Below, in pieces: positions 8,272-15,154 of a DNA stretch of 22,617 nucleotides. The DNA is taken from NCBI GenBank assembly GCA_037137535.1, contig JBAXKC010000040.1, positions 1 to 22,617 on the forward strand, given 5' to 3'. Each line of letters starts with the position of its first letter. Within the stretch, counting starts at the first letter, position 1. The notes beneath the pieces were generated by a model. The model did no database searches. It saw only the letters and a program-made list of their open reading frames with translations, and was not told the DNA's origin. The DNA is from a bacterium. GTDB taxonomy: Bacteria > Cyanobacteriota > Vampirovibrionia > Gastranaerophilales > JBAXKC01. Position numbers and translations under genes: made by a program.

Positions 8272-9981
8272 CTAAACAAATACTTTATTTCTTTTCTTGG
8301 ATAAGATGTCATTCCAATAGTTTATCTCTTTACTTTGTGGATAATTTTCACCAAAATTACTTATAAATATAGTATTGGCTTGTTTTAAATTAGCCTCGGC
8401 TTCATCAAGTTTTCCACGTTTAATCTCTACCATTGCAAGGATTTTGGCAGCAGTTGCAATTGCAGGATGATTCGCAGGTAACAATTTTTCATAAATATCT
8501 TTTGAATGTTGTGCAAATATTTCTGCTTGTTCATCTTTTCCTTGTTGTAAATAAATCAAAGCCATATTTCCAATTACTACTGCATAATTTGTAGTGTCTA
8601 TTCCCACAGTTTTTTGAGTTATTTCAATTGAGCGGTTATATGTACTTTCAGCTTTATCATATTGACCTATTCGTCTATACAGTTCACCCAAATTATTTAA
8701 ATATCTAGGCATATTAAATTGATCATTACTACTCTCAGCTATTTTTATCGCACGTTCAAGTAATGGTAATGCCTCATTAAATCTTTGCTGAGAATAATAA
8801 ATCAAAGCTAAACCATTTAAAGAGGCAGATAAGATAGAATTATTTTCTCCTAATTTATCTTCAATAAGATTTATGGACATTGAAAAAGTCTGCTCAGCTT
8901 TTTTAAGTTGATTTGAAGTTCTATACAATTCTCCAAGATCAGTAAGGCTTGTTAAATATTGTTTATAAGGAATCGGTGAAAGACCTTCTTCTATTGCAAT
9001 AGCTTTATTAAATAATTGCTCTCCCTTTTCATAGCTAGCTGTTTCTGTAAATATAACGCCAGTATTATTAATAATTGTAAGATATTCTTCGCTTTGCCTT
9101 CCAAACACTTTTTCAGCAGCAGGAATTAAATCATCATAGATGTTGCACGCTGCTTCAAATCTTGAAGTTTGATAATATACTAGTCCTAAATTCTGCAAAG
9201 ATATAAGGTAATTTTTATCCAGAATATTATTGGCTTTGAATTCTTCTATTGCCTTTAAATAAAAGTTTTCAGCTTCTTTATAATTGTTTATTTTACTGCA
9301 ATTGATACCTTGTTGCAAATAATTATGAGCTTTTTCTGTCTTTTTGATTTGATCTATCCCTTTTGCAAGTAAATCATAACTTTTTTGAATTTCTACAGTC
9401 TTAGAGTTTGAAGTTCCAAGTCTTTTTTTGCATATTGTTAAAGTTCTTTGTAAATAGCCCTCAGCTTCAATATAATTCTTTTTAGAAATAGCTATATCAT
9501 ACAAATACGCTGTAGCATCAGCTAAATTTAGCTCCTGAGTTGACGGGTATTTTTCATAAACTTTTAATACCTGTCTTAAACAGGCTTCAGCCTCAACGTA
9601 TTTTTGTTGCTGAAGATAGGTCTTAGCCAATCCCCTTTGTAAATCAGCTTTTGCCAAATCAAGTTTTGGAAGTTTAGCACCAATTTCTAATAGTTTAATT
9701 GCTTGTTTAAAATAAATTTCTGCATCAGAGTATTTTTTTTGCTTAAATGAAACATCTGCCAGAAAAGTCAAAGAAAAAACTTCTCCTTTTATATCTTTTG
9801 TTTTTCTGGATTCAACTAATCCTTGATTAAATAGACTTTCTGCTTTTATATAATTCTTGCTATTATCAGCTTTTAAGCCATTCTGTGCATAATATTGCCA
9901 ATTATTGGCTAAAGACATAGAACAAAAACTGCAAGCAGTTACAGTCATTATTATTAAAATAAAATTTTTTCTTCTAAACAT
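8272..9981 (-). CDS. TPR-repeat protein, probable lipoprotein (lipobox VTAC)
   Basis: Multiple tetratricopeptide-like ~34-aa repeats (e.g. A..YL..G..Y.KA...F). N-terminal signal peptide with a Cys lipobox. RBS aaggg. Confidence 0.85.
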   Translation of the reverse strand: MFRRKNFILIIMTVTACSFCSMSLANNWQYYAQNGLKADNSKNYIKAESLFNQGLVESRKTKDIKGEVFSLTFLADVSFKQKKYSDAEIYFKQAIKLLEIGAKLPKLDLAKADLQRGLAKTYLQQQKYVEAEACLRQVLKVYEKYPSTQELNLADATAYLYDIAISKKNYIEAEGYLQRTLTICKKRLGTSNSKTVEIQKSYDLLAKGIDQIKKTEKAHNYLQQGINCSKINNYKEAENFYLKAIEEFKANNILDKNYLISLQNLGLVYYQTSRFEAACNIYDDLIPAAEKVFGRQSEEYLTIINNTGVIFTETASYEKGEQLFNKAIAIEEGLSPIPYKQYLTSLTDLGELYRTSNQLKKAEQTFSMSINLIEDKLGENNSILSASLNGLALIYYSQQRFNEALPLLERAIKIAESSNDQFNMPRYLNNLGELYRRIGQYDKAESTYNRSIEITQKTVGIDTTNYAVVIGNMALIYLQQGKDEQAEIFAQHSKDIYEKLLPANHPAIATAAKILAMVEIKRGKLDEAEANLKQANTIFISNFGENYPQSKEINYWNDILSKKRNKVFV

Positions 9982-10281: not shown

Positions 10282-12768
10282 TCACTTCTTAAGCGTATGT
10301 AAAAACTTTTCCATTTCCGTTTGTTGATCGGTCGAAATCTCATTTTTATCGATAAAATTCATAGGGTCGTTAAGCTCGTTTATAGCTTCCATTACACCGA
10401 TTTTGCCCGATACTTTCTGGATTGAGGTAAAAAACGATTCAACTGCATAGTTAAAACCGTAGCTGATAAGCGAAAACGGAACCATGACAAGGGAAGAAAT
10501 CCCCATTAATCCGCCAATGACTGTTGCGGTTAAGCCAATAGGGTATCTTAAGTTTTCATTGTCAGGATTATAAATATGCTTTGGAATGGCCCTTATATCG
10601 TCATTCAAGGATTTTAGATATTTTTTAACAAGACTGTTTTTCGTGATAGTTTGATAGAACGGATTATCTTGAACCTTTTTAAGAACCTCTCCGCCTTTTA
10701 TAAAGTTGTAAAAGTTGTTAGTAGAAGCATTTTTCGTAATATGGGCGTCAATATCTTTTGTTAATGAGCCTAATGCCGTTTCAACCTCAGGCAGGGAGAA
10801 TTTTGTTTCTTTAAAATTTTTCATAAAAGCAATTAAGTCGATTAAGCTCGAAATGCTTTTATTATCTGACCTTATGATGTTATAAAGAGCTCTTTTCGCC
10901 TTATGCTCGCTTGAAATAGGTGTTAACATCTTGATAAACATTTCAGTAAAGGCTTTTGCGTTTTCATTATTCTTTAATAAATCTTTCAGTTCTTTTTTAT
11001 AAGCCTCTTTGCAGGTTTTATGGAAAGCTAAAGCTCCCTCTACGCAAGCTTTAAGCTCCTCACTGTTAAACTTTTCGGGATTTTTCCTATATGCAGCAAT
11101 AATCTTGTCTATTTCGGGGAAGGACTTTGAAATACCACCTATAACAGTATTTTTAGGAGTTTCCGACATTCCGCCTATTAATTCTAAAAAGGCAGGAAGA
11201 TTTTTGGAGATTTTTTCATAAGAATTCAGCAAGTTAATTTTAATATTTTCATCATTTTTAAATAAATTTTTTGCAATAAAGCCCGTAAATTTTTCTTTAG
11301 TAAGCAGTTTTGTTTTGATTAATACAACTCCGACTCCAGCAGTCAAGGCAGTAGTTACAAGCGGTAAAAACTTCTTTAATCCTCTGACAAATTCGGTAGC
11401 AAACTCCATATCTTCTGAATACTCTTGAGAGCGGTCGTCAACCTTTTCAAAAGATTTGAATAGCTTATGTTGAAGCCCTTTTGCACTTTCAAGCTGTCCA
11501 GTTTTAATCTTAGACTTTTTCAGCTCTTCCATAAGTGCCTTTTCAGCAGGCAAAATGTTCTTTTTATAGTCGTTATATGCCTTAAAGTCTTTCCTTGAAG
11601 TAAATAAGAACTTCATATCATCAACAAAATCAGCAAAGAAAGACTTATTTTTTTCCTTTTTAGCTTTTATATTCGGTGCTGCTTCAAGTTCTTTATCCGT
11701 AAGAGAAATAAAATTTTTCGGGTCTGATAATAATTCCTGTTTAACCTTATAACGACCGACTTGAGCGGATTTAATCTTTATATTTTGAGCAATCATAATT
11801 TCTGTAAGAAATCCGCCTGCAAAAAACGCACCACCTACAAGAGGAGCAAGAATTTTATTCGCATCACCAGGTAATTTAACCAGTTTAGATATTCCCATAC
11901 CAGCTAAAGCCCCTAATCCTGCAAACAGTCCGTCTGCAATAAAGCCCATTCCCAAAAATGCACTTGTAGCAGACTCAATATTCTCTGAAAAATCCTCTGC
12001 TTCATTATTAATACGCTTTATAACCCTTAAAATAGTTTCTTTTTCACGCTCTGCCTTGATAAGCTGTTCGGGTGTAACTTTTATTGATTTTATAGCAGAC
12101 ATATCTTTTTCATCTTCGACGGAACGCTTTTCTATAAACTCTTTAAACGTTTTTTTATCTTTCAGTAATTTTGAAAAATACCCAAAAGCCTCAACAGGAT
12201 TCTGAAAAACGCTGTCTTTCTCGGCTATAAGCTTAACACCACTAGCCTCTAAACGTTTTTTTGCTTCTGCAAGCTGTTCATCATCATATAAAATAAAATT
12301 TTTAGGATCGCTTAACTCGTTTTGCCTTGCACTTTCTCTAGCCATCTTTGAAGCAAATACCTGTTGCGAAGTAGCCCAAGCGTTTGCAACCATCATTATT
12401 GGCGTTGTCATTACGCTTAAAAGTATTCCCTGACCCGCACTATTTGCCTTAGAAGCAACACCACCCTTAAAACCTTTTAACATAAGAACCGCTAACGGCA
12501 ATGTAAACGCCTGCATACCAATTGAAACCAGTGTTCCTGTTGCGGTTTCTGTTTTGGTAGCTGATTCTTCAGATTTTCCGTCCATGATATTTATTGCATT
12601 TATAATAGTTTTTCCGAATTTATCCGCATTAGTCAAGTCTCCTTGTGAAATAGGACGATTATTCACGAGATAAGCCCTTTTAGCATCCTTATCCCGCTGT
12701 TCTTCTTCCCATTTATTATATTTAGGGGCATCTTTTGCAACCGTACGAAGTGTATTAATTATTTGCAT
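10282..12768 (-). CDS. Large (828 aa) membrane protein with three bilobed hydrophobic hairpins and a repeated ELxDPxNFI motif; Inc-like/vacuolar-membrane effector-like architecture
   Basis: Paired hydrophobic segments (LVSIGMQAFTLPLAVLML + GILLSVMTTPIMMVANAWA; AFLGMGFIADGLFAGLGALAGMGI + LAPLVGGAFFAGGFLTEIMIA; LTATVIGGLMGISSLVMVPFSLISYGF). Each is followed by ELSDPKNFI / ELLSDPKNFI / ELNDPMNFI. Long charged coiled-coil-like linkers. RBS taggga. Confidence 0.75.
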   Translation of the reverse strand: MQIINTLRTVAKDAPKYNKWEEEQRDKDAKRAYLVNNRPISQGDLTNADKFGKTIINAINIMDGKSEESATKTETATGTLVSIGMQAFTLPLAVLMLKGFKGGVASKANSAGQGILLSVMTTPIMMVANAWATSQQVFASKMARESARQNELSDPKNFILYDDEQLAEAKKRLEASGVKLIAEKDSVFQNPVEAFGYFSKLLKDKKTFKEFIEKRSVEDEKDMSAIKSIKVTPEQLIKAEREKETILRVIKRINNEAEDFSENIESATSAFLGMGFIADGLFAGLGALAGMGISKLVKLPGDANKILAPLVGGAFFAGGFLTEIMIAQNIKIKSAQVGRYKVKQELLSDPKNFISLTDKELEAAPNIKAKKEKNKSFFADFVDDMKFLFTSRKDFKAYNDYKKNILPAEKALMEELKKSKIKTGQLESAKGLQHKLFKSFEKVDDRSQEYSEDMEFATEFVRGLKKFLPLVTTALTAGVGVVLIKTKLLTKEKFTGFIAKNLFKNDENIKINLLNSYEKISKNLPAFLELIGGMSETPKNTVIGGISKSFPEIDKIIAAYRKNPEKFNSEELKACVEGALAFHKTCKEAYKKELKDLLKNNENAKAFTEMFIKMLTPISSEHKAKRALYNIIRSDNKSISSLIDLIAFMKNFKETKFSLPEVETALGSLTKDIDAHITKNASTNNFYNFIKGGEVLKKVQDNPFYQTITKNSLVKKYLKSLNDDIRAIPKHIYNPDNENLRYPIGLTATVIGGLMGISSLVMVPFSLISYGFNYAVESFFTSIQKVSGKIGVMEAINELNDPMNFIDKNEISTDQQTEMEKFLHTLKK

Positions 12769-12915
12769 ATTTGTTCCCTAAAAAATATCATTTATTGGTT
12801 TTTCAACATGTATATAAACATAATAATATAAACTTAATTGTCAAAAATTAAGGACATGTTACAAAATATTTTCAATTAGCTCGTAATTGCGAGTAAAGCT
12901 AAGCAATCTAAAAAT

Positions 12916-13342: not shown

Positions 13343-15154
13343 ATGTATAACAAAGAGGACATTGGAAATATCGTAAAGTCTATGGGACTCGTTTTCGGCG
13401 ACATCGGAACCAGCCCTATATATACCTTTACAGTAATATTTCTTTTAATTCACCCTAATCTTCAAAACGTCATGGGAATCTTATCATTGATTTTCTGGAC
13501 GTTCATGATTCTTGTAACACTTGAATATGCTGTGTTAGCAATGAGTTTAAGCAAAAAAGGCGAAGGCGGAACGGTTGTTCTAAGAGAAATCCTTGTGCCA
13601 CTCCTTAAAGACAGGAAATCAATCCTGTTTATTACAATTCTATCATATGTAGGCGTTTCCTTACTTATGGGCGATGGAGTAATAACCCCTGCCATCAGCA
13701 TTTTGAGTGCGGTGGAAGGTATGCGTTTAATCCCCGGCTGGGCAACAGTTCCTCAGACTTGGCTAATCGCAACAGCGGCAATAATTGCAATCGGGCTTTT
13801 TTCAATACAAAGAAAAGGAACGGAAAAAGTCGCAAACGCTTTTGGTCCGCTAATGGTGATATGGTTTACCACGTTATCAGTGTCAGGGCTTTATTATATA
13901 GCTAAAGCACCTTACATTTTAAAGGCTATAAACCCTTATTACGCAATTCAATTCTTTATGCACAACGGACTGGAAGGTTTTATAATCCTTTCAGCTGTAA
14001 TTCTTTGTGCGACAGGAGGAGAAGCCTTATATGCAGATATGGGACATCTTGGAAGAGTACCAGTTTCAAGAGCATGGTATATCGTGTTTTTTGCCCTTGT
14101 TTTAAATTATTTCGGGCAAGGTGCTTTCCTAATGATAAATCCACACGCTAAAAACATTCTTTTTGAAATGTTATTCAGCGAATCTAAGTTTTTATACGTT
14201 CCTTTCCTTGTTTTAAGTATCATTGCAACTGTTATTGCATCTCAAGCTATGATAAGCGGTATGTTTTCAGTTGTTTATCAAGGTATAACCACAAGAATAA
14301 TGCCACTCTTCAAAGTTGACTACACCTCTCCCGAGCTGAGAGCACAAATTTACATTGGTTTTGTCAATTGGTTCTTATTAGCTTTCGTGTTGATTGTAAT
14401 GTTCATCTTTAAAGAATCCAACAACCTTGCAGCGGCTTATGGGCTTGCTGTCACAGGAACAATGACAATTACGGGAATTATGATGATCTGGATTTTCAAA
14501 ATCAAAAAACAACCTATCAAAGCCTTTTTATCAGTAATTGTTTTAATAGCTGATTTAGCTTTTTTAATTGCAAATATGCATAAAATCCCTAGTGGTGGCT
14601 ATTGGTCAATTATTATCGCCGCTATTCCAATGGCGATAATATTAATTTACACCAACGGCCAGAGAATGCTTTATAGAGCGTTAAAACCGATTGGTCAGGA
14701 GAATTTCTTAAACCAATATGAAGCAAAATACAAAGAGGCTTACAGAATAAGAGAAACAGCTCTTTTCTTAATTAAAGACCCTCGCCAGATACCGCCTTAT
14801 GTCGTTAGTACAATGTTTGGTAACGGTATTATTTATGAAGACAATATTTTTGTCTCTGTAAACATTACTGATCACCCATACGGCACTTCCTACGAGTTTA
14901 AAGACAACCTAGGCACAGGTTTAAGGTATTTTGTAATAAATATCGGATATATGGAAGTTATTGACGTTGAGAAAATCCTCAAAGAAGCGCAGATTAACGA
15001 AAAAGTTATCTTCTACGGACTGGAAGAGATTATTACAGACAATATAATCTGGAAAATCTTCTCCTTCATTAAGAAAAATACCCCTGCCTTCGTTCAATTC
15101 TACGCACTGCCGTCAAATAAACTTCATGGCGTTATTACAAGAGTTGAAATATAA
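13343..15154 (+). CDS. kup: KUP/HAK/KT family potassium uptake protein
   Basis: N-terminal GDIGTSPIYTF signature. ~12 TM segments followed by a cytoplasmic C-terminal domain. 603 aa, typical for the family. Confidence 0.9.
   Translation: MYNKEDIGNIVKSMGLVFGDIGTSPIYTFTVIFLLIHPNLQNVMGILSLIFWTFMILVTLEYAVLAMSLSKKGEGGTVVLREILVPLLKDRKSILFITILSYVGVSLLMGDGVITPAISILSAVEGMRLIPGWATVPQTWLIATAAIIAIGLFSIQRKGTEKVANAFGPLMVIWFTTLSVSGLYYIAKAPYILKAINPYYAIQFFMHNGLEGFIILSAVILCATGGEALYADMGHLGRVPVSRAWYIVFFALVLNYFGQGAFLMINPHAKNILFEMLFSESKFLYVPFLVLSIIATVIASQAMISGMFSVVYQGITTRIMPLFKVDYTSPELRAQIYIGFVNWFLLAFVLIVMFIFKESNNLAAAYGLAVTGTMTITGIMMIWIFKIKKQPIKAFLSVIVLIADLAFLIANMHKIPSGGYWSIIIAAIPMAIILIYTNGQRMLYRALKPIGQENFLNQYEAKYKEAYRIRETALFLIKDPRQIPPYVVSTMFGNGIIYEDNIFVSVNITDHPYGTSYEFKDNLGTGLRYFVINIGYMEVIDVEKILKEAQINEKVIFYGLEEIITDNIIWKIFSFIKKNTPAFVQFYALPSNKLHGVITRVEI

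Follow-up and report, generated by a model that had tools for sequence, protein, structure and literature searches.

The 828-amino acid protein P0001, encoded within the 22,617-nucleotide stretch of Gastranaerophilales DNA analysed here (the window), belongs to a large, undescribed family of predicted all-helical integral membrane proteins, with relatives in genomes named or inferred as Melainabacteria (Vampirovibrionia). The protein derives from a unit of about 170 residues that was triplicated. The family is new as a sequence family and as a predicted fold only, a novelty that does not extend to its functional class. We tentatively prefer to read P0001 as a transducer or scaffold of the inner membrane, which may be coupled to a histidine kinase lacking a sensor domain, and its gene as a lineage-specific chromosomal one; we infer this function from architecture and weak synteny only. 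The original prediction, which likened P0001 to the inclusion-membrane (Inc) proteins of intracellular bacteria, is largely refuted because of the taxonomic distribution of the family.

The predicted 828-residue open reading frame is real and runs from ATG to stop, but it is encoded on the minus strand. The protein matches the family profile with E=2.4e-267. A promoter-like site, recognised by consensus match only, lies about 50 nucleotides upstream of the ATG, and Rfam, run on the window and on 7 loci, detects no riboswitch or other RNA upstream of the gene. The features of the gene and protein are the following.

12817..12844, minus strand: putative promoter-like site TTGACA-16-TATGTT, with 10/12 matches to the consensus
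10282..12768, minus strand: complete coding sequence of P0001 (828 aa and stop), member of the undescribed family
12649..12768, minus strand: leading helix of unit 1 (aa 1-40), devoid of signal peptide and homologous to both inter-module 'linkers'
12544..12648, minus strand: acidic pre-membrane helix of unit 1 (aa 41-75)
12538-12582, minus strand: conserved pre-membrane motif of unit 1, DGKSEESATKTETAT (aa 63-77)
12370..12543, minus strand: hydrophobic pair of unit 1 (TM1a, aa 76-100; basic loop, aa 101-109; TM1b, aa 110-133)
12289..12369, minus strand: basic post-membrane helix of unit 1 (aa 134-160), with motif 1 at its end
12292-12318, minus strand: motif 1, ELSDPKNFI (aa 151-159)
12088..12288, minus strand: leading helices of unit 2 (aa 161-227), the first 'linker' of the original prediction
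11971..12087, minus strand: acidic pre-membrane helix of unit 2 (aa 228-266)
11965-12009, minus strand: pre-membrane motif of unit 2, NNEAEDFSENIESAT (aa 254-268)
11785..11970, minus strand: Gly/Ala-rich hydrophobic pair of unit 2 (TM2a, aa 267-299; turn, aa 300-302; TM2b, aa 303-328)
11707..11784, minus strand: basic post-membrane helix of unit 2 (aa 329-354), with motif 2 at its end
11707-11736, minus strand: motif 2, ELLSDPKNFI (aa 345-354)
11509..11706, minus strand: leading helices of unit 3 (aa 355-420), the second 'linker' of the original prediction
11380..11508, minus strand: acidic pre-membrane helix of unit 3 (aa 421-463)
11395-11439, minus strand: pre-membrane motif of unit 3, DDRSQEYSEDMEFAT (aa 444-458)
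11299..11379, minus strand: first hydrophobic helix of unit 3 (TM3a, aa 464-490), not listed previously
10546..11298, minus strand: insert of the third inter-helix loop, variable between lineages (aa 491-741)
10444..10545, minus strand: second hydrophobic helix of unit 3 (TM3b, aa 742-775), one long helix with a conserved Pro
10351..10443, minus strand: post-membrane helix of unit 3 (aa 776-806), with motif 3 at its end
10351-10377, minus strand: motif 3, ELNDPMNFI (aa 798-806)
10285..10350, minus strand: C-terminal helix (aa 807-828), missing in minimal members of about 540 aa

The internal triplication that had been proposed is confirmed by hhalign, both between the modules (E=1.8e-21, 7.5e-13 and 3.3e-16) and between whole thirds of the protein aligned pairwise (E=1e-33, 4.8e-29 and 1.8e-30). 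Each unit consists, in this order, of a leading helix, an acidic pre-membrane helix with the motif DxxSQxYSExxExAT, a hydrophobic helix, a loop, a second hydrophobic helix, a basic post-membrane helix with the motif QKxASRxGR, and a final cap, L-x-[DN]-[PY]-x-x-F. When single-module HMMs are run against 956 neighbouring open reading frames, the module is found in no other protein.

The three ELx(0-1)[SN]DPxNFI peptides on which the triplication had been noticed are present exactly as quoted, at aa 151-159, 345-354 and 798-806, for an expectation of 7e-7 chance matches in a protein of this composition. They do follow hydrophobic segments, but start 17-22 residues after them and not within about 15. 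A second triplicated motif, equally conserved, precedes every hydrophobic pair ([DN]xxS[EQ]xY[SA]ExxExAT, at aa 63, 254 and 444); it had been overlooked. The long Lys/Glu-rich linkers described between modules are indeed helical, with 28% of K+E, but they are not mere spacers: their constant length and their homology to the N-terminal helix make them part of the repeat.

With a Kyte-Doolittle window of 19 residues, hydrophobic segments are found at aa 76-100, 110-133, 267-299, 303-328, 464-490 and 742-775. The closely spaced, bilobed pairs announced for all three modules are thus present in modules 1 and 2 (aa 76-133 and 267-328) but not in module 3, where aa 742-775 form a single long hydrophobic helix and not a hairpin. 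By homology, the partner of this helix is aa 464-490, from which it is separated by a 251-residue insert. In P0001 this insert is helical and net basic (42 K+R versus 31 D+E), is modelled with low confidence, and shares 25-29% identity with its nearest homologues.

Whereas a first search had retrieved 9 homologues, an exhaustive profile search retrieves at least 535 representatives (clusters at 50% identity) at E<=1e-3, including 287 at E<=1e-30, and relatives are present in 249 species-representative genomes. Among non-photosynthetic bacteria, Melainabacteria are the closest to cyanobacteria, and they are common in animal guts; to our knowledge, almost nothing is known of their lineage-specific cell biology. 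Among the 80 genomes listed out of the 249, about half are named Melainabacteria, Gastranaerophilales or non-photosynthetic 'Cyanobacteria bacterium', one of them being the complete genome MEL.A1, and the other names are uninformative or discordant. The discordant labels include CAG 'Clostridium' and 'Brachyspira' bins, which we take to be misnamed Melainabacteria.

P0001 displays the features by which the family is defined, i.e., three copies each of [DN]xxS[EQ]xY[SA]ExxE and of QKxASRxGR...L-x-[DN]-[PY]-x-x-F around six hydrophobic helices, and it fits the family statistics of spans and linkers, with constant leading segments and variable inter-helix loops. Members range from 531 to 1459 aa, and all of this variation lies within the three inter-helix loops, the remainder being length-constant. 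The inter-helix spans, anchored on the motifs since hmmalign-based lengths cut long inserts short, reach 43-187, 53-199 and 48-724 aa, while the first and second linkers measure 72 ± 4 and 64 ± 3 aa, respectively. The three spans co-vary in length (Spearman 0.63-0.82), and the loops of minimal members are reduced to 5-18 aa.

Sequence identity reaches 55-77% in the juxta-membrane helices but drops to 18-52% in the hydrophobic ones and to 25-29% in the insert, and the hydrophobic helices show no conserved polar residues hinting at any specific activity. Pre-membrane helices carry a net charge of -3 to -4.5 and post-membrane helices of +2 to +3; the inter-helix loops are net basic, with +3 in short ones and a net positive charge in 93% of the long inserts. 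Within the ELxDPxNFI motif, only L, D/N and F are kept family-wide, Tyr taking the place of Pro in 60% of third copies, a pattern more in keeping with a helix-capping turn than with a linear docking peptide. The idea that this motif is a docking site for host proteins is not supported.

The structure of the family is best seen in the short form P0008, whose AlphaFold2 model is all-helical (pLDDT 91.4, pTM 0.88), with helices H44-98/H117-163, H244-303/H309-352 and H420-479/H485-531; in the model of P0001, pLDDT exceeds 90 in the pre-membrane, post-membrane and linker helices. Judging from the secondary structure of these models combined with hydropathy, every unit would be a hairpin of two very long helices, of about 55-60 and 45 aa, and the distal 20 residues or so of both helices would be hydrophobic. 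The whole would form a six-helix membrane bundle with a large, length-invariant helical domain on its N-terminal side; this bundle would have a pseudo-threefold arrangement, with a 'ring' of caps. Mean-field DCA on 260 sequences (Meff 187) yields no usable contact map, the top couplings being gap and indel-edge artefacts. As there is no signal peptide and the N-terminal tail is strongly charged, the N-terminal side is presumed to be cytoplasmic, and the three loops would lie on the far side, where they could expand together. Net-basic loops facing outward conflict with the positive-inside rule, so that this N-in topology is tentative; the inserts of the seven longest members give no clue to it, since Pfam finds no known domain within them.

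As a transducer or scaffold of the inner membrane, P0001 would perceive a signal from the envelope or the membrane through its variable outer loops; in minimal forms, the membrane helices themselves could do so. The invariant cytoplasmic bundle, with its three juxta-membrane stripes of acidic and basic residues and its three capping turns, presumably set at one level, would relay this signal to a partner in the cytoplasm. For that partner, the best candidate is a minimal histidine kinase with a NarL-type response regulator, both adjoining the gene in several deeply diverged clades. A NarL-type regulator is encoded at most 4 genes away in 25 of the 84 loci and a kinase in 20 of the 84. This adjacency occurs in three or more arrangements, and the family proteins of the clades concerned share only 27-39% identity; part of it goes back to a single ancestral syntenic block with a local inversion. 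The adjoining kinases (210-221 aa) start at the H-box and have neither a hydrophobic segment nor a sensor domain. The pair is missing from the window and from about 70% of the loci.

The family gene is found about once per locus, and its neighbours look like housekeeping genes, judging from their sequences (dapA, proC and secG, for instance). Other neighbours are an MlaD-domain gene, in 6 loci, and, in three separate clades, cation-related genes, namely KUP (this window), MgtC (13 loci) and Nramp (locus L004). As for export systems, of which Incs use a non-flagellar type III one to reach the membrane of the host vacuole, flagellar export genes alone are seen, near one homologue, also in L004. 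The window itself holds many orphan genes, some of them as paralogous pairs.

The architecture of chemoreceptors, sensor-kinase receptors and accessory sensors such as BceAB-BceS and LiaF-LiaS is that of a transmembrane helix, a variable loop, a transmembrane helix and a conserved cytoplasmic helical bundle. The P0001 family shares this pattern, with loops ranging from a few residues to hundreds, and a two-component system adjoins it in several clades. It differs from them by its three units in one chain, instead of a homodimer, and its kinase partner is only a candidate. Furthermore, neither Pfam nor NCBIfam detects a HAMP, MCPsignal, HisKA or other signalling domain in P0001.

The best surviving alternative, possible though somewhat unlikely, is an envelope tether or structural scaffold anchored in the inner membrane. 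Extending into the periplasm, its Lys-rich helical loops would attach to peptidoglycan, to the outer membrane or to anionic lipids, as a tether comparable to the helical domain of TolA, and the conserved bundle would serve as a stable base only. Long, helical, Lys-rich inserts, net basic in 93% of cases, loops expanding together, the MlaD-domain neighbour in 6 loci and the diderm envelope of Melainabacteria (PMC4040986) all agree with a tether. The loops of minimal members are nevertheless too short to reach anything, the longest members show no recognisable peptidoglycan- or outer-membrane-binding domain, and conservation is strongest across the membrane from the loops.

That P0001 could be a channel or transporter is distinctly doubtful. 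It would then form a pseudo-threefold six-helix barrel of a design like that of mitochondrial carriers, in which the acidic and basic stripes would act as gate or vestibule for an ion or a small solute. Such a function would suit a thrice-repeated pair of membrane helices, the D/E and R/K stripes that are invariant at the membrane boundary, and the cation-related neighbours in three clades. Against it, conservation is lowest in the membrane helices, where no polar residue is conserved, and these neighbours, spotted post hoc, are not conserved. Mitochondrial carriers (SLC25) share with P0001 the three tandem repeats of two membrane helices and the charged residues conserved at one boundary. Their repeat is of about 100 aa, versus about 170 in P0001, their signature PX[DE]XX[KR] is absent from P0001 (no Mito_carr match in Pfam), and neither sequence nor fold matches. 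In addition, the P0001 motifs are carried by long extra-membrane helices and not, as in SLC25, within membrane helices, which in P0001 are poorly conserved.

An alpha-helical pore-forming toxin or holin-like protein, whose hydrophobic-tipped hairpins would stay outside the producer's membrane until triggered, as in ClyA, Hbl, Smh or YaxAB, is highly improbable. P0001 does share with ClyA, Hbl/Nhe, SmhABC and YaxAB long antiparallel helices tipped by a hydrophobic helical hairpin; its hairpin loops are basic, and Foldseek returns SmhB pore and HblL1 (E 5.9-6.9), matches that are not significant and do not support a ClyA-like fold. With three hairpins in one covalent chain and six hydrophobic helices exposed, such a protein would hardly be soluble. 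A gene that occurs in 249 species-representative genomes, about once per locus and in housekeeping contexts, is not toxin-like, and there is neither phage or lysis context nor any match in PHROGs.

Hardly any credence can be given to a secreted, Inc-like or vacuolar-membrane effector inserting its hairpins into a host membrane and showing ELxDPxNFI three times to host proteins. In its favour are two closely spaced hydrophobic pairs, the lack of a Sec signal, basic hairpin loops whose breach of the positive-inside rule might be tolerated in a secreted protein, and a window whose orphan genes and paralogous pairs recall effector islands. Incs and the hairpin vacuolar effectors of Legionella and Coxiella likewise have two hydrophobic segments of about 20 aa joined by a short loop (as in units 1 and 2), long helical flanks and no Sec signal peptide. 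A bilobed hydrophobic domain is nonetheless not specific to Incs, and these effectors have one hairpin, compared with three homologous units in P0001, the third pair being split by 251 aa and hence no hairpin. Incs are encoded by obligate intracellular bacteria (Chlamydiae), whereas the relatives of P0001 belong to a non-intracellular lineage, named or inferred as Melainabacteria. The informative names among the 80 listed of the 249 species-representative genomes are those of Melainabacteria and Gastranaerophilales, the latter being described as obligate gut fermenters with small genomes and not as intracellular (PMC4040986). This distribution, the housekeeping contexts in which the gene occurs about once per locus, and a strongly conserved, length-invariant core, unlike that of fast-evolving effectors, contradict the effector reading. 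The promoter-like site of its own upstream of the gene, the absence of any Inc family match in Pfam, the motif Pro not kept in the third copy, and a conservation highest in the juxta-membrane helices, on the presumed cytoplasmic side of the bacterium itself, also argue against it.

The statement that the module is undescribed holds, as protein-family, structure and literature searches give no match. P0001 matches nothing in Pfam, NCBIfam, PHROGs, PADLOC or PDB sequences; in Pfam it has no match at E<=10, and nothing is consistent across 44 members. The fold search finds no match in PDB or BFVD, and the literature searched contains no description of the family. A transporter fold and a known housekeeping membrane family, the two outcomes named beforehand as contrary to the original prediction, were both looked for and neither was found. 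PilC/GspF platform proteins and the export-gate proteins FliP/FliQ/FliR are internally repeated helical-hairpin membrane proteins, and have in common with P0001 tandem repeats combining helical hairpins and hydrophobic segments. P0001 differs from them in repeat number and size, has no T2SSF or export-gate match in Pfam, and its PDB sequence match to FliP (E=8.2) is insignificant. Also ruled out are an LHC/HLIP-like ExxNGRxAM motif (the motif lies outside the membrane helix and the hosts are non-photosynthetic), CURT1/CAAD and Mic10-like curvature hairpins (no Pfam match), and a phage tape-measure protein or holin (nothing in PHROGs).

The P0001 family lies outside every protein family and solved fold searched, and yet is modelled with high confidence; its minimal forms of 539 aa are suitable for structural work, and the candidate partner kinase is open to interaction testing. 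The gene may be a lineage marker, if its restriction to Melainabacteria holds in a full survey, and a bilobed hydrophobic pair is no evidence of an intracellular lifestyle. In a bolder form of the transducer reading, which we consider unlikely, P0001 would be a transducer of new fold, i.e., a single-chain pseudo-trimer with three co-expanding outer loops for sensing the envelope, whose invariant cytoplasmic bundle would both dock a sensor-less kinase and control it via three L-x-[DN]-P-x-x-F caps. If true, this would be a signature protein of Melainabacteria, and a third architectural solution to transmembrane signalling, beside dimeric receptors and transporter-coupled kinases.

The 828-aa window protein is encoded by a single long ORF (10282-12768, minus strand) and contains exact matches to the three peptides quoted in the original prediction. 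The pattern E-L-x(0,1)-[SN]-D-P-x-N-F-I is found at aa 151, 345 and 798, for 7e-7 chance matches expected in a protein of the same composition, and Kyte-Doolittle analysis delimits the following hydrophobic segments:

aa 76-100 and 110-133, first pair
aa 267-299 and 303-328, second pair
aa 464-490, hydrophobic segment
aa 742-775, hydrophobic segment

As these matches and segments are present, the motifs and the two tight pairs are real. The third of the proposed bilobed hairpins has to be redrawn: segment 742-775 had been wrongly taken as a pair and segment 464-490 had been overlooked. In this third unit, a 251-aa insert (aa 491-741) splits the two hydrophobic helices.

A first homology search gave eight relatives of 536-1120 aa, and their alignment with the window protein reveals two motifs present in three copies in every member. 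The acidic motif [DN]xxS[EQ]xY[SA]ExxExAT (aa 63, 254 and 444 of the window protein) precedes the first hydrophobic helix of each pair, and a basic stretch, QKxASRxGR, follows the second one and closes in a cap, L-x-[DN]-P-x-x-F. The proposed internal triplication is borne out by profile-profile comparison, both of the three modules taken pairwise (E=1.8e-21, 7.5e-13 and 3.3e-16) and of whole thirds of the protein (E=1e-33, 4.8e-29 and 1.8e-30 over 154-161 columns). Since the latter alignment reaches through the N-terminal helix and both inter-unit "linkers", the protein is nothing beyond three copies of one ~170-aa unit. The initial observation was largely right.

The family is large. When 1.84 billion cluster representatives are searched exhaustively with HMMER, 535 proteins pass E<=1e-3, 287 of them E<=1e-30; their lengths range from about 400 aa, for what look like fragments, up to 1459 aa. 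A short member used as query retrieves 674 clusters at 90% identity. Relatives are encoded at 249 loci of GTDB contigs (one genome per species). Among the 80 of these matches listed, about half go by the names Candidatus Gastranaerophilales, Melainabacteria or non-photosynthetic "Cyanobacteria bacterium", and this half includes the complete genome MEL.A1. The names of the others are uninformative or discordant, for instance "uncultured bacterium", "Clostridium sp. CAG:768/967", "Brachyspira sp. CAG:484", "Muribaculaceae" or "Gammaproteobacteria"; we take the CAG bins to be misnamed Melainabacteria. Wherever these names are informative, relatives are found in Melainabacteria, and this distribution suggests that the source MAG is itself a melainabacterium. 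Melainabacteria are described as having a diderm envelope, and the Gastranaerophilales as obligate fermenters with genomes of 1.8-2.3 Mb (Soo et al. 2014, PMC4040986).

The resources searched hold no known relative, either in sequence or in fold. The window protein has no Pfam match at E<=10 and only sub-threshold noise in NCBIfam; Pfam gives no consistent match over 44 family members, PADLOC none, PHROGs only sub-threshold noise (E>=0.02), and the family profile reaches at best E=1.6 against all PDB sequences. The inserts of the seven longest members hold no recognisable domain, and Foldseek finds no match at E<=1e-3 in PDB or BFVD. The AlphaFold2 model of P0008, a short member (539 aa; 71-sequence alignment), is all-helical, with a mean pLDDT of 91.4 and a pTM of 0.88. 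In each of its units, the pre-helix is continuous with the first hydrophobic segment (55-60 aa) and the second hydrophobic segment with the post-helix (44-47 aa). The window protein is modelled with a pLDDT of 72.6 and a pTM of 0.67, confidence being >90 in the conserved helices and <50 in the insert. Secondary structure and repeat together suggest a six-helix bundle with pseudo-threefold packing, and we regard the whole as a new protein family with a new predicted fold.

The helical core is conserved and length-invariant, variation being limited to the three inter-helix loops, which explain the full length range of 531-1459 aa.

Segment lengths in 256 members, anchored on six motifs
N-terminal segment: about 46 aa
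Inter-unit segment 1: 72 +/- 4 aa
Inter-unit segment 2: 64 +/- 3 aa
Inter-helix span 1: 43-187 aa
Inter-helix span 2: 53-199 aa
Inter-helix span 3: 48-724 aa

The three span lengths are correlated (Spearman 0.63-0.82, 135 representatives), as expected if the loops share one face and build one variable domain. Between the window protein and its two closest relatives, identity is 55-77% in pre- and post-helices, 18-52% in hydrophobic helices and 25-29% in the insert. Pre-helices are strongly acidic (net charge -3 to -4.5) and post-helices basic (+2 to +3).

Cap residue frequencies in 139 representatives, copies counted separately
L: copy 1 99%, copy 2 70%, copy 3 69%
D/N: copy 1 88%, copy 2 97%, copy 3 98%
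P: copy 1 73%, copy 2 94%, copy 3 27% (Tyr in 60%)
F: copy 1 100%, copy 3 83%

ELxDPxNFI had been proposed as a possible host-protein docking site; this conservation fits a helix-capping turn, held by two hydrophobic anchors, more closely than a linear docking peptide.

As the window protein has no signal peptide and carries 13 K+R within its N-terminal 75 aa, its N-terminus and all conserved helices should be cytoplasmic, with the loops on the outer side. The short inter-helix loops, however, have a net charge of +3 and a K+R density of 0.22, and 93% of the long inserts are net positive, with 15% Lys. Basic loops, if outside, break the positive-inside rule, a contradiction that keeps alive, with a low probability, the idea that the hairpins are something other than conventional inner-membrane spans. 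The arrangement that we infer is a six-helix membrane bundle prolonged by a cytoplasmic bundle, the loops exiting on the opposite face.

A promoter-like site (consensus match only) lies 50 nt before the window gene, which has no Rfam element and is flanked as follows:

13343-15154: divergent KUP potassium transporter
8272-9981, minus strand: 569-aa TPR protein, 300 nt downstream on the same strand

The TPR protein, which has an N-terminal hydrophobic leader then a Cys and may be a lipoprotein, also adjoins the family gene on an independent Logan contig (L001), and is not beside it in the other homologous loci examined. Over 84 loci, neighbours change between clades; they include dapA, proC and secG, identified by reading their sequences, and, by Pfam, genes for MgtC, Opp permeases, an MlaD-domain protein and an ABC1 kinase. 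In 10 loci the family gene adjoins a gene for an ~890-aa protein with hydrophobic segments in its N-terminal region and an ABC1/UbiB-type atypical kinase domain; in L017, L023, L026, L037, L044, L047 and L057 that gene lies directly upstream, on the opposite strand.

Only a two-component system recurs as a partner. A NarL-type regulator is encoded <=4 genes away in 25 of the 84 loci; for a kinase the count is 20. At least three arrangements occur, in clades between which the family proteins share only 27-39% identity. Most of these kinases (210-221 aa) begin at the H-box and are devoid of hydrophobic segment, which leaves them without an intrinsic sensor. Such minimal kinases adjoin the family gene at L002, L005, L013, L017, L023, L042 and other loci, together with a NarL-type regulator and, frequently, RmuC. 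The adjacency, which is partly one inherited syntenic block with local inversion, is a lead, not a proof, and the window itself lacks the pair.

The leading proposal, at low confidence, is that the protein could act as a transducer or scaffold, linking an input from the envelope or the membrane to a partner in the cytoplasm, for which a sensor-less kinase would be the best candidate. An envelope tether is somewhat less probable, and a channel or transporter is unlikely. A pore-forming toxin is very improbable, and equally so is the Inc-like effector originally read from the bilobed hairpins, an interpretation that is wrong and founders on host biology, on distribution, on the pattern of conservation and on family membership.

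Further genes of the window:

1430-2656, minus strand, and 16318-17526, minus strand: paralogues (408 and 402 aa) sharing 38% identity
19836-21230, minus strand, and 21493-22614, minus strand (running past the window end): tandem paralogues with 74% identity across about 275 aa
3555-4268, plus strand: 237-aa protein recognisable only by its C-terminal J domain (DnaJ, E=1.5e-16)

The 408- and 402-aa paralogues match neither Pfam nor PDB sequences. By eye, their C-terminal halves share a Cys ... His-x-[WF]-L-E-Y ... D-P pattern (TATC/TGTC, SHAWLEY/RHTFLEY, VIDPRNK), which recalls the cores of transglutaminase-like or papain-like cysteine peptidases. The tandem paralogues carry Ser-rich tracts and look as if an orphan gene had recently been duplicated; the 19836-21230 product, the one of the pair scanned, has no Pfam match. 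The J protein has an unusual stand-alone architecture. Several orphan proteins, from the ORFs at 2984, 3555, 2656(-), 7779(-), 17526(-) and 21230(-), have M-x-I-x-N-like N-termini and, about 20-50 aa further, a similar [IL]-[STA]-F-x-[GS] motif (NIAFQG, ETSFGA, EISFSR, ITAFKG, TISFIG, ITAFTS), a pattern noted by eye only. It could act as a sorting or processing signal specific to the lineage, or just reflect low-GC composition.

Among MAGs, orphan families of this sort are no rarity. The triplicated family is nevertheless unusually well defined, large and confidently modelled, in an under-studied lineage, and it brings a testable partner hypothesis.
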